A stretch of DNA of 64,000 nt from Podarcis gaigeae (lineage: Eukaryota): NCBI GenBank assembly GCA_964106915.2, contig OZ066917.1; one strand, 5' to 3'. The translations under genes and the position numbers were made by a program. Shown one piece after another: positions 2,088-64,000 of the stretch. Each line of letters opens with the position of its first letter. Positions within the stretch are counted from its first letter, which is position 1. The notes beneath the pieces are model-generated. The model saw only the letters and a list, made by a program, of their open reading frames with translations. It did not search any database and was not told the origin of the DNA.

Positions 2088-2843
2088 GTGAGTAGACAAT
2101 AAGAGCTAAACTTCGTTCAGTGCTAAATTTCCAGCTAGAAGGCATAGATTTTGAAAATGTTATTAAGTTTTATTGGCAAATGGCTTAATCAAGTGAACAG
2201 TATCATGCATATTGTAGGAAACTAATGACAGTTCCCCTTTAAGAAAACTATTATCAGACATAGTTATGTTTAAAGCTATTAAATTCACCCAAGTAGAGGT
2301 GAGAATAATTTTAATGGTGTGTGTAAATTACTCTGGAGGGGTGGAAAAAGCATATTTTGTAATGATTATTGAAGATTGCATGGCATGGCATTATTTCATT
2401 ATTAAAGAAGTATTAACAATTTATTAGTCTAGAATAAAAGTACCAAGCCGCTTCCGCAGCTGGCTGAAATTGAGGGTTCTGAAATATTGTCTCAGGCAAT
2501 GTTAGAAACCAATTAAAAGTGTGCATGGGTGGAAGAATATAAATGGTAAGACAGGAGCCGGGGGTTCTTACTTGAGATGAGCAATAGATGAGATGAAGTG
2601 TTGAATGAAGAAATGTGTTGTGGGTAATGACTAACAACAATAAGTGGATTTGCCTCTATGTATCCAAGGATGCTTCCTACCCATGTATATCTTTGAGCAA
2701 CTGCAACTTCCTGCAGGCTGCTCTATATTTTTTTATAGCCAGGATGGGTTGGGCCAGCATGCTTCATCCTTAGGCAGCCACAGTAGGCATGGAGTCGCCA
2801 TGGTAGGGGCATAGGAAGCAAGAAATAACATGGCAACCTTTGT

Positions 2844-3665
2844 CATTGGGCATGTATCCTGAATCAACCAACCTGATTGCTGATTCATCACTTCATCAGG
2901 GTCAACCCCAAGTTAAGGATCTCCATATGGTGCACAACAAATATGGGTGACCCTTCCAGGACACTATTAAAGGTAAGGTAAAGGGACCCCTGACCATTAG
3001 GTCCAGTCGTGGTCGACTCTGGGGTTGCGGCGCTCATCTCGCTTTATTGGCTGAGGGAGCAGGCGTAGAGCTTCTTGGTCATGTGTCTAGCATGACTAAG
3101 CCACTTCTGGAGATACAGAGCAGTGCACGGAAACGCTGTTTACCTTCCCGCCGGAGCTGTACCAATTTATCTACTTGCACTTTGACGTGCTTTCGAACTG
3201 CTAGGTGGGCAGGAGCAGGGACCAAGCAACGAGAGCTCACCCCGTTGCGGGGATTTGAACCGCTGACTTTCTGATCGGCAAATCCTAGGCTTTGTGGTTT
3301 AACCCACAGCGCCATCCACGTCCCTCCAGGACACTATTGGGGGAGTTCTATAGCCATTAGCCCATGTCTTGGCACATGGACCCCTTTACCAGTGACCCCG
3401 ATACTATGATCCAGAGGAGGGTGGAGTCACCCCCTCCAATTAGACTAAGGATCCAACCCAATGTCTTTTCCCGCCAACAAGTTGTGACAATTTCTGTGAG
3501 CTAGGTAAAGCCCCCAAAACTGGCCTGATTGGTTTGAAGGCAAATTCCTCCCTGGCACCGAAAACGGAAACTGAGTCACTCCACATCAAGGCCATATACA
3601 CGCAGCACCTGCTTAACTTCAGGTGGGGTGAAATTTATATAAGTTGGATGGGTGGAATGTCCAAT
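2844..3665 (-). mobile_element. Decayed copy of the ENE-bearing LTR-like element, interrupted by a Sauria SINE
   Basis: The minus strand reads ATTGG, TATATAAA, GGGAGG-AATTT-GCC...GGC-TTTA-CCT, TGTCACAACTTGTTGGCGG, CATTGGG and a GGAGGGGGTG/CACCCTCC hairpin, in the same order as in the copies at 42.6 and 62.3 kb. Boundaries are approximate. Confidence 0.55.
2969..3324 (-). mobile_element. Sauria SINE (Squam1), full length
   Basis: tRNA-derived head GGGACG..GGCGCTGTGGGTTAAACCAC, (ACCTTT)n-type tail, and 14-bp TSD TCCAGGACACTATT at 2955-2968 and 3325-3338. Confidence 0.95.
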
Positions 3666-12333: not shown

Positions 12334-12472
12334 NNNNNNNNNNNNNNNNNNNNNNNNNNNNNNNNNNNNNNNNNNNNNNNNNNNNNNNNNNNNNNNNNNN
12401 NNNNNNNNNNNNNNNNNNNNNNNNNNNNNNNNNNNNNNNNNNNNNNNNNNNNNNNNNNNNNNNNNNNNNNNN
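12334..12472. other. Assembly gap (139 N)
   Basis: Run of N adjoining the 3' end of an L2 copy. Confidence 0.99.

Positions 12473-27979: not shown

Positions 27980-28026
<47 letters not shown>
27980..28026. repeat. (TA)n microsatellite, left flank of the palindrome
   Basis: Directly visible. Confidence 0.95.
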
Positions 28027-28029
<3 letters not shown>

Positions 28030-28080
28030 GGTTTTGGTGTCCTCGGGTGTCTTCCCGTGTAAAAGTTGGGGTGTCTAGGC

Positions 28081-28114
28081 GACGTTTCGACGAGGTCTCA
28101 CTCGTCATCTTCAG
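28081..28114 (-). ncRNA. Minimal type I hammerhead ribozyme motif (mirror copy)
   Basis: Exact reverse complement of 28928-28961. Confidence 0.7.
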
Positions 28115-28927
28115 GCTGGTGCTTTCGGCTTCTTGTTACTGGAACAGAGCGGGATCTCAATGTTTGAGTTCCTATAAATACTGTAGAGGGGGTGTGGTGT
28201 CTAGCCTCCAATGTTCTGGGCAGAGAGGAAGTTCCCAGGCTAGTGTGCCTTTTCTTCTTTTGTTCCTTAATTACTTGAGAGATACCTTGAGTGATTTCTT
28301 GAGTGATATCCTGAGTACCACTTAGGTGGGTCATTAGGTGTGGATTAGTTGCTAAAGTCTTTGTGTCTTGACCTCTTGAACTTTGTGAAGAGTTTTCCTG
28401 AGAAGATGGCTGTATTGCACTTAGTTGTGCTTTGGCTTGGCTTCGTGTATAGGGGCGAGCTGTGGTTTTGTGGCTTGTGTCAGCCAGATCTGTGTAGGGA
28501 TTGCAGGGGGGTGCAGCATCCGGTGCTGCACCCCCCTGCAATCCCTACACAGATCTGGCTGACACAAGCCACAAAACCACAGCTCGCCCCTATACACGAA
28601 GCCAAGCCAAAGCACAACTAAGTGCAATACAGCCATCTTCTCAGGAAAACTCTTCACAAAGTTCAAGAGGTCAAGACACAAAGACTTTAGCAACTAATCC
28701 ACACCTAATGACCCACCTAAGTGGTACTCAGGATATCACTCAAGAAATCACTCAAGGTATCTCTCAAGTAATTAAGGAACAAAAGAAGAAAAGGCACACT
28801 AGCCTGGGAACTTCCTCTCTGCCCAGAACATTGGAGGCTAGACACCACACCCCCTCTACAGTATTTATAGGAACTCAAACATTGAGATCCCGCTCTGTTC
28901 CAGTAACAAGAAGCCGAAAGCACCAGC

Positions 28928-28961
28928 CTGAAGATGACGAGTGAGACCTCGTCGAAACGTC
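28928..28961 (+). ncRNA. Minimal type I hammerhead ribozyme motif
   Basis: CUGAAGA-U-[GACGAG ugagac CUCGUC]-GAAAC-GUC: both core boxes, a 6-bp helix II, and a self-complementary ACGU in place of helix III. Confidence 0.7.
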
Positions 28962-29044
28962 GCCTAGACACCCCAACTTTTACACGGGAAGACACCCGAG
29001 GACACCAAAACCTGCATTCCTGTACCCGTGAAAATCTACGAAAG

Positions 29045-41990: not shown

Positions 41991-42556
41991 TTATTTCTTC
42001 TTGAAACATGTCATTACATTTCTTTCCCCTGTTGCTGTTTTTTTTACTACAGTTACTGCAGCCTCTGAAATGCTGGATAGTGCAGACTGATAGAGTGGAC
42101 ACAAGAGTCATAGCTGCTTATTCTCTTAATCTCCCCCATGGTCAGAATTCTGGAATAACAGGTATCATACACACCCCAACCCCTATACCCAGAAAGGGCT
42201 ATCGGTAACATGTGTACATGCTCACAACTAACCATTTACTGGTTGGTGGAATAAGAGAACAAAGTGGTGTGACTGCAGCCACTTAATTAATCTCAATCTG
42301 AACGCATCCATTGCTGGTGTGTACTGGAAAAGGCGCAATCACCCTGAAAACCCCCCAAAACAGAACTATGGCATGTATCTAGTGATGTGGAAAGTCTACC
42401 ACATTTTCACTCAAAAACACACACACATCAGAACAAACAGCAGCTATGGCACTAAAGGGGCCCTTTACTGTATATCCTACAATTGTCAATTAATATTGTT
42501 TCATTTTAACAGGTGTAACAGTGAGAATTCCTATAGCAGCTTAATGGGAGAAATCT

Positions 42557-43270
42557 TTGCGTGGCGATTCCCTCCCCATCCCAAGAAGAGTAAATAAAGA
42601 CACTGGACACCAAATTTAAGGTTAATGGGCGAAAATGGCCACAACTTTATTGATTACAGGTAAGAGCGGTATTGGCTTTTAGGCATTGGCCCTACCAGAC
42701 TATCCGGTCTAACCGGGAAGGGTTAAGCACCAACCGGGGGAGCCCCCGAGATGCACATCCCTAGGCACTCCCCGAGGGGGTTACCGCTCAGGAGCGCGCT
42801 TTAGGCCCTAGCCTTCGTAGGTTTCGGACGAGGCGACGCCCCCCGGAGTCCTTTAACGAACTACCCTTCAAGCTTTGGGGGAGGTGATGGCGTTCCTCCC
42901 CCCCGACCTCATTTCCATAACAGTACCCCTGCCAATGCCTAACCGCCAAAACCAGGAGTTGTGACGTTTTGCTAAGAGGTAGGCGAAAAAACCAAGTGGC
43001 TATAAAATACAGCCAATTAAGCCAAATGGAAAAACTCCTACCCGGCCCCATGCGGCGACCAGCCGAAGCCCATAGCAAAGTCAAATGCAAACCTAGAGGG
43101 CGGGTGGGTGGGAAACCGCTGCAGCTGTGAGAACGAAAAGGGGGCGAGCCAGGGCTGAGGGGCGGTGAATATTGATGAGCTTGGGGAATCCCTGCTTCTC
43201 ACGGGGCTGACGCAAGCCCCGCGAGATTGCTGATGGGGTCATGAGCCCGCAACCCCACCCCCTCTTAAGA
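42557..43270 (-). mobile_element. LTR-like element carrying an ENE-like motif (possibly a DIRS/Ngaro-type terminal repeat)
   Basis: On the minus strand: ENE-like motif at 42978-43042, AATAAA at 42646-42651 inside CTGTAATCAATAAAGTTGTGGCC (identical to 62986-63008), and a CGCAA end. No TG..CA termini or TSD seen. Confidence 0.75.
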
Positions 43271-43371
43271 TCAGGAGTGGCTTTTCCTGTATGTCATCTG
43301 ATTCATCTGTGTAACAATCTTGTAAGGTAAGGCAGCCATTTATTCCCATAATGCAGATGTGGAGCTGAAGC

Positions 43372-61490: not shown

Positions 61491-62434
61491 GTGTAAGGAA
61501 ATGAGAGCTGGTGCATATGTTCACACTCGATTTTCTTTTCTTTTCTTTTTTAAAGCACGCCAAACTCTCCCTGAAAAGTAAAAAGAGAAATAAAGTTGAT
61601 TTATCAGGGATACAACTTTCAGAAGAGGTAGTCATTTTAGTCCGCTTCTGGAAAAACAACAAATAATTTTGGTGTGTCTTAAAAATGAACACATTTACTA
61701 AATTATCATGGACTAAAGTCCATTTTATAAGACATAAGTACTAGAAGACAGAGCCTGCCCTTATAAATTAGGACAGTTGGAATATATAAAGCAGCCATTT
61801 TGAAATTACTTGTCAAGGTGCTATAATGGAACTTTAATGGCTCCATGAAATGTTAACTTTCTGGGACATTTTTAAAAACCTGCTCTTTTTTCTTGATTCA
61901 GGACATAAAGTCTGCTTCTTAACCATTTCTAGAAAAAAATATAATATGCTCAGTAAATCAAACAACATTTGTGTAGATCACTAAGAACATTTGTGTACAT
62001 TTCTCTCACTTTGTTTCAGCTCTTGTTGCTACAGAAGTTTGTTCCAATTGAGAAAAAGGTGCTTGTTCAGATATTCCTGCTGTTGTCATGTATAAGTTTG
62101 CACACCTTGAGCTTCATTGTTGAATGCTTTATGCTATAACCATGCAAGGTGAGTCAGCCAGCAATTTTAATTTCCTTTGCAGTTTGTGGCTCTTGTTTCC
62201 TTCCTCATCACAACTATATTGGGTGCTATGTACAGTGCATTAGTTCCGTGCCCTTGTTTATCTAATTACTAGTTAAGACAATTGCATTGTTTTATAGAAG
62301 CTACAAATGGGATCGTCTTTAACGAGCATCCTGGTTGCGCATGGGCCCCTGAGACAACCCCTGCCAGGTCGAAGGTGCTGGGCGTGGCCCAGGCCTTGTC
62401 TGTATGGTCCCACAATCACACCAGGCCATTTGAG

Positions 62435-62475
62435 CCAATCACTGCAGGTGGCGTGATTGGTGGGGGCCTATAAAA
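62435..62475 (+). promoter_or_regulatory. Pol II core promoter (two CCAAT boxes plus TATA) within the LTR-like element
   Basis: AGCCAATC, GATTGG and CCTATAAAA lie within 41 bp. Confidence 0.6.
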
Positions 62476-62993
62476 TCGGCAGCGCAACGTGGCTGAGGCA
62501 CTTGCTTTGCGCTGCCGAGCACCCTCCCTCCCCTCCCTCTTTGTAGATGTTGCTGCTTTGGCCTTGCTTCAGATATTGGCTGGTTGCCTGTTTTAGAACA
62601 GGGGCCGGATAGGAATTTTTCCATTTGGCAAATTGGCAGTGGCCACTTGGTTTTCACCTACCCCCTTAGCAACTGTCACAACTTTGTAAGGTTAGGCGGT
62701 TAGGCATTGGCTTAATGAAGTGTGTGGGAGGGGAGGTGCGGCCATCACCTGCCCCTCCATGAATAAGGGCATCCCAGTAAAGGAATCTGGGGTCCTGGAT
62801 CTCGTCTGAAGTCTGCTTGAGGGGCCAGGGCCATGCCAGGACCACAGGAACCCCGGGGTGAGCTTCGGTTGATCTTCATTGATGTTGCTCCCTCGTTTGG
62901 TGTTTACCCTTTCAGACTGCCAGCCAGAGGGGCAGGAGGCAGTTATAGTCTGTTGCCAATGCCTAAGCCAATACCACTCACTTTGCTGTAATC

Positions 62994-62999
62994 AATAAA
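62994..62999 (+). terminator. Polyadenylation signal AATAAA of the LTR-like element
   Basis: Lies in a 23-nt block conserved in the 42.6-kb copy and is followed by T/GT-rich sequence. Confidence 0.6.
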
Positions 63000-64000
63000 G
63001 TTGTGGCCTAAATTTTGCCCATTAACATAAACCAAAATTATTTGTCAGTGTAAAGTTATTTACTTGGGGAAGGGATTGGGGGCCTTGGGGCGCAACCACA
63101 ATCTTAATATACAAACCAACAGGCAACTGGCAAGGTCTCAAGGGGGGCAGCTCATCCTGAAAAGGGTTCCAAACACAAAGATTGAGATCTGGATTTAGAA
63201 ACCCTTTGTGCAATGAACTGGGTTCTTTTAGACTCAGCAGATCACATACCAGCTCAGGAGCATGTTACCTTGGGTGTTAGCCATATGCATTCCTGCAGGC
63301 CACATTGTATGTTCTACAGTGAATGCCTAAAGAGGACACTTAATTGGTAATATGCCCCAAAGTTCCATAAATATGCTTAGGATTGCACTGTTGAACCTAT
63401 TTTGTCACAAATGAAATATTATGCTTTATTTGAAAAAAAAACCCCACAGAATTCTTTTTAAAAATGTATTCTTAACTTTTTCATCTTAGATCCATTAAAA
63501 GAAATTGTGGTCTCAGCCTTAGACAACAAAGAAATAAATGCAGGAACTGCCTACCCTGAAAACGAATGTTTAAGGTTCCTCTAAGATGATCTTTGTAGAA
63601 ATGTTATAAATAACTGGAAATTCAACAAAAGCAGGGGATGTGGGAAGAAGTCAAGTAGTGGTCACAAATGTAAGACTTGAGGAGGAGAAAGCACTAATGT
63701 ACAAAAATAAAGCACTTAAAAAACAAACAAAAATAAGAAGCTCTAAAAGCAAGGATTCTTAGTCAACCACAAGCGTTTCTAAGCTTTGTACTAGATGAAA
63801 AGAAGAGTATTCTTGAGGAAAAAGCCTGCCATTGTCATGTTCAGTATTGTTTCAACCCAAGAAAAATACTTCGGGAATCAAAACAGGGTGACATTTAAAA
63901 TAAATAACTTTGGATTCTGCATAGACTATATTAAAAGAAAATATTTTGGGGAGCTGAAAAGGCTTAGTTTGTATAAAGCTGAATTACAACAATGTGTGGA

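Follow-up and report, generated by a model that had tools for sequence, protein, structure and literature searches.

Nested long-range helices predicted to bring a presumed poly(A) tail to an ENE-like motif in lizard retroelement end-repeats

The 64 000-nt stretch of Podarcis gaigeae DNA analysed here (the window) is vertebrate DNA rich in one SINE family. It carries two copies of a non-coding repeat, on opposite strands, that align with approximately 67% identity over approximately 430 nt, and a third, decayed copy described below. The two units and the promoter-like elements of copy 1 are as follows:

62305..63101, plus strand: copy 1, whole non-coding terminal-repeat unit of approximately 797 bp (edges approximate; AAA on the left, AA on the right)
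42556..43284, minus strand: copy 2, whole unit of approximately 729 bp, from the larger subfamily (AAA at both ends; depth edges 43283-42556)
62435 and 62456, plus strand: CCAAT/ATTGG boxes in the promoter-like part of copy 1
62469..62474, plus strand: TATA box (TATAAA) of copy 1, part of a putative promoter

The left edge of copy 1 was placed where the depth of matching contigs climbs from approximately 50, at 62305-62308; depth is back down by 63100. A TATA box, an AATAAA signal and a downstream GT-rich tract are all present in copy 1, features that are not specific to LTRs, and a search for a TATA box in copy 2 found none. An exact 12-bp hairpin (62476-62487 / 62507-62518) lies directly 3′ of the copy 1 TATA box and spans the likely transcription start. 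Elsewhere in the window, a run of N marks an assembly gap at 12334-12472, inside an older repeat.

The repeats are 730-800-bp non-coding retroelement ends. They are likely to be solo end-repeats of the Ngaro (tyrosine-recombinase) type, a class that we infer from the solo units. Both copies have a short core at their ends, AAA/AAA in copy 2 and AAA/AA in copy 1 (edges taken from depth, to within a few bases), which fits the trinucleotide rule for insertion of DIRS-order elements described in the available part of PMC7192593. According to the accessible text of PMC8547959, the solo AB repeats of Ngaro elements in Cafeteria are likewise isolated non-coding units: their 5′ part resembles a promoter, they contain a poly(A) signal, LTR ends are missing and a short AAA core stands at both ends. 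They differ in that the parent open reading frames and split repeats (A1-ORFs-B1-A2-B2) were not seen here, only solo units being present in the 64-kb window, and that the same text does not describe an RNA structure for AB repeats. SIRE, which corresponds to A2+B2 of VIPER in the part of PMC6681497 available, offers a further comparison of the solo AB type, while the lizard unit, at 730-800 bp, is longer than the A+B of Xenopus DIRS-53_XT (236+152). Pfam gave no matches in 10 of the 66 reading frames of at least 95 amino acids, and none would be expected for a solo unit. End-to-start joints were absent among the joints listed (all three in one contig set and 15 of 32 in another). Near the ends of copy 1 there is an unevenly placed 9-bp inverted repeat (62331-62339 / 63090-63098), which gives a strong hairpin only when the end is joined to the start (matched by 0/300 shuffles for copy 1 and 9/300 for copy 2); such a junction hairpin might be what is expected of a recombinase attachment site. 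The solo copies in the window are probably dead, and selection would have acted on the parent elements.

ENEs are known from viral RNAs and from MALAT1. They also occur in plant and fungal transposons (available parts of PMC12501189 and PMC13541005), and the accessible text of PMC7583470 contains one mention of ENEs in stickleback retroviruses. The original prediction placed an ENE-like motif upstream of the poly(A) signal, and a descriptor with the shape of an ENE matched just two places in the window, one in each of copies 1 and 2:

62608..62662, plus strand: ENE-like stem-loop of copy 1 (6-bp lower stem with 5/6 paired, U5/U4 internal loop, CCA/TGG upper stem)
42978..43042, minus strand: ENE-like stem-loop of copy 2 (lower stem 6/6 paired, U5/U6 internal loop)

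The U-rich internal loop between paired stems is present in copies 1 and 2 and decayed in copy 3, while GG/CC at the top of the lower stem, next to the loop, is found in all three copies and could supply the G-C pairs for A-minor contacts. In copies 1 and 2, AATAAA lies on the same strand as the ENE-like motif and downstream of it, and the U/U loop exists only on this AATAAA-carrying strand. At the gathering score Rfam returned nothing, and at E ≤ 5 all its matches were sub-threshold. A double-domain ENE of the TWIFB1 type was considered and rejected, there being only one U-rich loop, with merely a 2×2 pyrimidine loop above it.

Between the motif and the poly(A) signal, the original prediction described a long-range 12-bp helix, here called P3. 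Its exactness is plain: 62700-62711 is the exact reverse complement of 62955-62966, with 243 nt between, and the 42-kb copy has the same exact pair (42679-42690 / 42931-42942) with 240 nt between, on the minus strand, so that 42931-42942 is its 5′ arm. The distances given for copy 1 were also right, since the lower stem of the U-rich motif ends at 62662, 37 nt before the helix opens, and the signal starts at 62994, 27 nt after it closes. GTCACAACT and GCCATCACCT, said to be kept, are indeed present in both copies. The helix is longer than first described, and GTCACAACT is itself a 5′ arm, that of P1. The elements of the nest are:

62602..62605, plus strand: 5′ strand of P0, GGGC, predicted to pair with 63017-63020 (GGGGCC here is identical at 6/6 positions in copies 1 and 2)
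62675..62683, plus strand: 5′ arm of P1, GTCACAACT (9/9 pairs with 62999-63007 in both copies, one of them U-G)
62690..62697, plus strand: 5′ strand of P2, a short interrupted helix with 62967-62975
62700..62711, plus strand: 5′ arm of the 12-bp helix P3 (exact match; pair probability 0.92-0.99)
62727..62758, plus strand: G/C-rich hairpin within the loop (its shape, but not its sequence, is common to the three copies)
62766..62796, plus strand: another interior hairpin; TAAAGG lies within or at the hairpin loop (all three copies)
62955..62966, plus strand: 3′ arm of P3 (exact match)
62994..62999, plus strand: AATAAA poly(A) signal, the last A of which is predicted to open P1
62999..63007, plus strand: 3′ arm of P1, AGTTGTGGC (from folding and pair count)
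63017..63021, plus strand: 3′ strand of P0, GCCC, plus CA, the presumed cleavage site, 22 nt after AATAAA
42931..42965, minus strand: 5′ arms P1, P2 and P3 of copy 2 (pair probabilities 0.88, 0.94 and 0.99)
42626..42690, minus strand: 3′ arms P3, P2, P1 and P0 of copy 2 (AATAAA 42651-42646; presumed cleavage 42626)

Cleavage at the CA of 63017-63021 is presumed from the usual distance between AATAAA and CA. The TAAAGG motif sits in or at a hairpin loop at 62778-62783, 42857-42852 and approximately 3388-3383 while the surrounding loop has diverged, and the motif is a possible protein-binding site.

A single inverted pair of 12 exact base pairs within 300 nt is nothing unusual and could be due to chance; the window has seven, against a mean of 1.1 in 20 shuffles. 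The pattern of conservation, as judged from the aligned copies, exceeds chance. Between copies 1 and 2, P3 is identical at 24/24 positions and P1 at 18/18, the two ENE strands at 21/23 and 20/23 (41/46 together), and the stems overall at 80-100%, while the strong divergence claimed for the intervening loop is borne out (133/248 columns identical, 54%). The extended arm duplex has a predicted energy of −40.3 and −42.2 kcal/mol in copies 1 and 2, respectively, matched by 0/1000 shuffles in each case. When placements of equal geometry were scanned coarsely across the whole window in 10-nt steps, only 5 of 12 661 fell below −40, four of them in a 494-nt palindrome. This palindrome, at 28025-29017, is perfect, has a 5-nt spacer and lies between (AT)n runs; it is possibly an assembly artefact. 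In P0, P1 and P3, copies 1 and 2 do not differ at all, so these helices yield no covariation. In a two-sequence consensus fold, both sides had changed in 9 of 91 pairs; all nine lay within the loop and were given no weight.

The third copy had escaped the original prediction. A covariance model built from the first two copies brought it to light (26.1 bits, rough E 3e-4), and it consists of the following:

3457..3559, minus strand: decayed ENE-like part and 5′ arms of copy 3 (covariance model)
2831..2850, minus strand: 3′ arms of copy 3 (CCCAATG at 2850-2844, GCCA at 2834-2831)
2969..3325, plus strand: SINE that interrupts the copy 3 loop (target duplication of 14 nt; 370 nt of extra length)

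The 3′ arm of copy 3 lies 606 nt on, or 236 nt once the SINE and its 14-nt duplication are subtracted. The spacing, which had been described as fixed, is thus close to constant across the three copies in the window (243, 240 and 236 nt) but not in every relative, since single contigs have shortened loops. In P3 of copy 3, 8/12 pairs are kept and 4/12 are broken, and the innermost pair is G-C instead of C-G, both sides having changed; 0.0015 matches of this kind would be expected by chance in the 21-nt band searched. The 7-bp core pairs with a probability of at least 0.98 in a two-strand fold, and P2 has 4/4 pairs. Copy 3 lacks AATAAA and the P1 partner, although GTCACAACT itself is exact. GCCATCACCT is lost while the G/C hairpin shape is still there, and the two interior loop hairpins are both kept even though they lie outside the covariance model that found the copy. 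The arm duplex of copy 3 is no better than those of shuffled sequences (301/1000, with the innermost base left out of the test), a sequence-only profile of copies 1 and 2 misses this copy, and MAFFT gives an alternative alignment for its 3′ arm. A three-copy profile revealed no fourth copy. Copy 3 also has a TATA-like box at 3641.

In the fold model the four nested helices, P0-P3, are mutually compatible. When copy 2 is cut at the presumed cleavage site, its unconstrained minimum-energy fold is the nested model with the U loop open (−172.6 kcal/mol); for copy 1, the minimum is lower than the nested model by 3.8 kcal/mol. Along the chain, 405 nt (copy 1) or 408 nt (copy 2) separate the first U tract from the presumed 3′ end. 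Counted as steps through the predicted structure graph, this distance falls to 140 and 146, respectively, with P3 alone and to 16 with the full nest, including the 9-bp P1 and the 4-bp P0 clasp. The 12-bp helix had been proposed to place the tail beside the U-rich loop; it is the core of the nest and part of the geometry, but not sufficient for it on its own. Over the whole 530-nt region, folding is no better than for shuffled sequences (z = 0.33 and −0.21). A competing local hairpin forms on the 5′ strand of the ENE-like motif with a probability of 0.86-0.98 in copy 1 and of approximately 0.48, against 0.40, in copy 2, in an energy model that ignores triples. It is located at 62604-62629 in copy 1 and 43046-43021 in copy 2. 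A common family variant at 62624 converts one G-U pair of this hairpin to G-C, and the alternative hairpin may therefore be a switch that has been kept.

Relatives in public data were examined for the same features. Summed contig depth in run X1, which is not equivalent to copy number, starts from approximately 50 in unique flanking DNA and reaches 0.6-2.3e3 across the first (5′) third of copy 1. It climbs to 1.0-1.8e5 across the ENE-like motif with the 5′ arms, drops to 0.75-5.5e4 within the loop and stands at 1.2-3.0e5 across the 3′ arm with AATAAA. The family is very large, and its subfamilies share the core. Matching breaks off at the inner edge of the 5′ arm, 62710, in 41 records of X1 and 34 of X10 and at that of the 3′ arm, 62956, in 32 and 31, respectively, indicating that the loop changes but the arms are retained. 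At two mismatch sites of copy 1 (62609 and 62694), 99% and 95% of the X1 depth has the pairing letter, as in copy 2. Among the loose ends listed, the innermost P3 pair varies on both sides (T/A in the 5′ arm; A/T/C in the 3′ arm), and all three internal arm substitutions keep a G-U pair on the AATAAA strand. These variants come from unphased reads, in the best 40 of 219 and 40 of 131 variant rows, and are suggestive of pairing that has been kept. Pattern scans of public collections gave 93, 120, 0 and 4 loci in sets of viral contigs, 3 in metagenomes and 0 and 7 in prokaryote genomes, but no relative; nhmmer comparison of 216 and 11 of the pattern loci found no similarity beyond the pattern (best E 0.04, on the pattern itself).

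Four raw RNA runs, X21-X24, were read to the extent of 6-12% each. Copy 1 attracted 53 and 647 reads and the copy 2 stretch 169, 160 and 302, approximately half of the latter on a neighbouring repeat. In this 6-12% of all four runs, no A-tail was present among the best supported loose ends listed per run, and read ends did not pile up. Reads continue through the presumed cleavage site and both strands are represented, a pattern that fits passive transcription of embedded copies. In run X23, one diverged family copy gives approximately 200-300 reads over 62600-63010, mostly in one orientation, that run past the signal untailed; this copy probably sits inside a host transcript.

The arms, their conservation, the U-rich internal loop and AATAAA are directly visible in the DNA. 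Taken with the fold model, they lead us to the reading (probability approximately 0.6) that this is a conserved nest with P3 at its core, predicted to start the tail beside the U-rich loop, where a protective triple helix is likely to form. P3 (12 bp) and P2 would close off the loop of approximately 240 nt, P1 (9 bp) would pair the bases just after AATAAA and P0 (4 bp) would join the presumed cleavage site to the bases just 5′ of the ENE-like stem. The result would be a three-way junction with the root of the tail at the foot of that stem. The parent RNA would be cut approximately 20 nt after AATAAA, the tail would bind the U loop through U·A-U triples, as in KSHV PAN and Evade, and deadenylation of the template RNA would be slowed. 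Most likely, then, the fold works like an ENE with an added long-range clamp, and two features of ENEs that can be read from sequence are present.

One of the closest likenesses is to the single-domain ENE of KSHV PAN, which, in the accessible text of PMC7583470, also has a U-rich internal loop (U5/U4-6 here) beside G-C pairs, upstream of the poly(A) signal. In contrast to PAN, the lizard motif lies approximately 400 nt from the presumed tail and is bridged to it by four nested helices, has one or two additional bases separating its lower stem from the U tracts and has no Rfam match, and its triple helix is a prediction. The ENE of Arabidopsis Evade/Copia93 is likewise a U-rich loop of a retroelement near the RNA 3′ end with a proposed role against deadenylation, but has four U tracts, between the open reading frame and the LTR, and the available part of PMC12501189 does not mention a long-range clamp to the cleavage site. 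The lizard host is, moreover, a vertebrate, and the lizard element probably uses a tyrosine recombinase.

Base-pairing around or across a poly(A) signal is familiar from the HIV-1 polyA hairpin and the HTLV-1 Rex-response element. An alternative that we regard as unlikely is that the nest mainly sets where transcription ends, with pairing hiding or exposing AATAAA depending on the upstream arms; such a role is compatible with tail protection. Two identical poly(A) signals in one element mean that the first has to be read through, and split direct repeats do place B twice in the element, according to the accessible text of PMC8547959. A role in site choice would also fit the position of P1, which in both copies opens with the final A of AATAAA and takes in the following 8 nt, and the presence in copy 2 of a 7-nt complement of the signal further downstream. 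However, the predicted cost of opening AAUAAA is only 0.1-1.5 kcal/mol in all eight upstream-truncation contexts of copy 2 and varies erratically, from 0.9 to 5.7 kcal/mol, over the eight contexts of copy 1. A thermodynamic switch that hides the signal was rejected for this lack of consistency, and the A/B boundary and second signal were not located in these solo units. The predicted folds differ from those of the retroviral poly(A) regions in that AATAAA lies mostly in a loop, at the usual distance from the presumed site, with no consistent occlusion.

Somewhat less probable again is a replication signal with no part in tail protection, one that Gag or reverse transcriptase would recognize during packaging or priming or that would form in single-stranded cDNA. 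DIRS-1 makes single-stranded cDNA by means of an unknown primer, and a 3′ hairpin has been proposed (PMC7192593, in the part available). P3 is purely Watson-Crick and pairs equally on both strands, which energies calculated with DNA parameters find equally strong; GTCACAACT is kept as sequence in copy 3 without its partner, and the TAAAGG hairpin occurs in 3/3 copies. Several observations point the other way. The U/U loop is confined to the AATAAA strand, one pair of P1 is U-G in each of copies 1 and 2, and the three listed arm substitutions all keep G-U on that strand, although these are unphased, weak evidence and would do so by chance in 1 of 8 cases. The original prediction had itself raised a DIRS internal complementary region (ICR) as a possible cause of the repeat. 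The ICR of DIRS-1 resembles the lizard arms in being long-range complementarity inside a DIRS-order-like element but pairs with the two termini of the element (accessible text of PMC7192593), whereas the lizard arms pair with each other. Since neither arm is complementary to the terminal 60 nt over more than 4-7 nt, an ICR of the DIRS-1 type was rejected.

The unit could instead be the solo LTR of an integrase-using element (Gypsy or an endogenous retrovirus) with a long structured R region, which we hold to be improbable and, by a little, the less credible of these last two. The TATA box, AATAAA and GU-rich tract of copy 1 stand in LTR order, long R regions keep stem-loops (available part of PMC3601003) and ENEs are reported in stickleback retroviruses, as noted above. 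Copy 1 has TG at 62308 and a 6-nt repeat at 62302-62307 / 63110-63115, which overlaps the AAA core and could plausibly arise by chance. The same is true of a 4-nt repeat at the copy 2 boundary, one of 900 pairs tried. Yet no boundary pair combining TG...CA with a target duplication was found among the 810 pairs tried for copy 1 and the 900 for copy 2, and the depth edge of copy 2 has no TG. The depth bins suggest that many copies have the AAA before 62308 in common, with a right edge close to 63100 instead of 63109, and AAA or AA at both ends fits the DIRS-order rule cited above. We gave up reading copy 2 as a TG...CA LTR that starts near 43327 and has a 5-bp duplication, since contig depth ends near 43283. 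An LTR parent would change the class but not the fold, which could still be an ENE.

Finally, that the pairing is a chance inverted repeat, functionless and inherited by both copies, is very improbable: approximately 1.1 exact 12-bp pairs are expected per window and global folding z-scores are near 0, but conservation is limited to the paired and motif segments, the four nested helices are mutually compatible and the distant copy 3 keeps the core at a similar spacing.

Tail docking by the nest thus remains our preferred reading. A broader proposal, which we put forward tentatively and consider doubtful at present, is that the RNA of vertebrate tyrosine-recombinase retrotransposons terminates in a junction dedicated to tail docking, where four nested helices carry the cleavage site to the foot of the ENE, so that only RNA ending in the last repeat, which is needed for replication, would be protected. 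Searches of the literature found no ENE or clamp of this kind in Ngaro elements or lizard transposable elements, within a coverage that did not extend to the main ENE survey, which may list some; a motif adjoining AATAAA had no match in the text of the papers searched.

To our knowledge, the stabilization and ending of RNA in DIRS-order elements have barely been studied, and the 420-nt segment would provide a construct with which to do so. An ENE brought to the tail by nested long-range helices would explain how such an element could act from 400 nt away. As the family is very large, copies that lie within host transcripts could alter host RNA stability or the choice of 3′ end.
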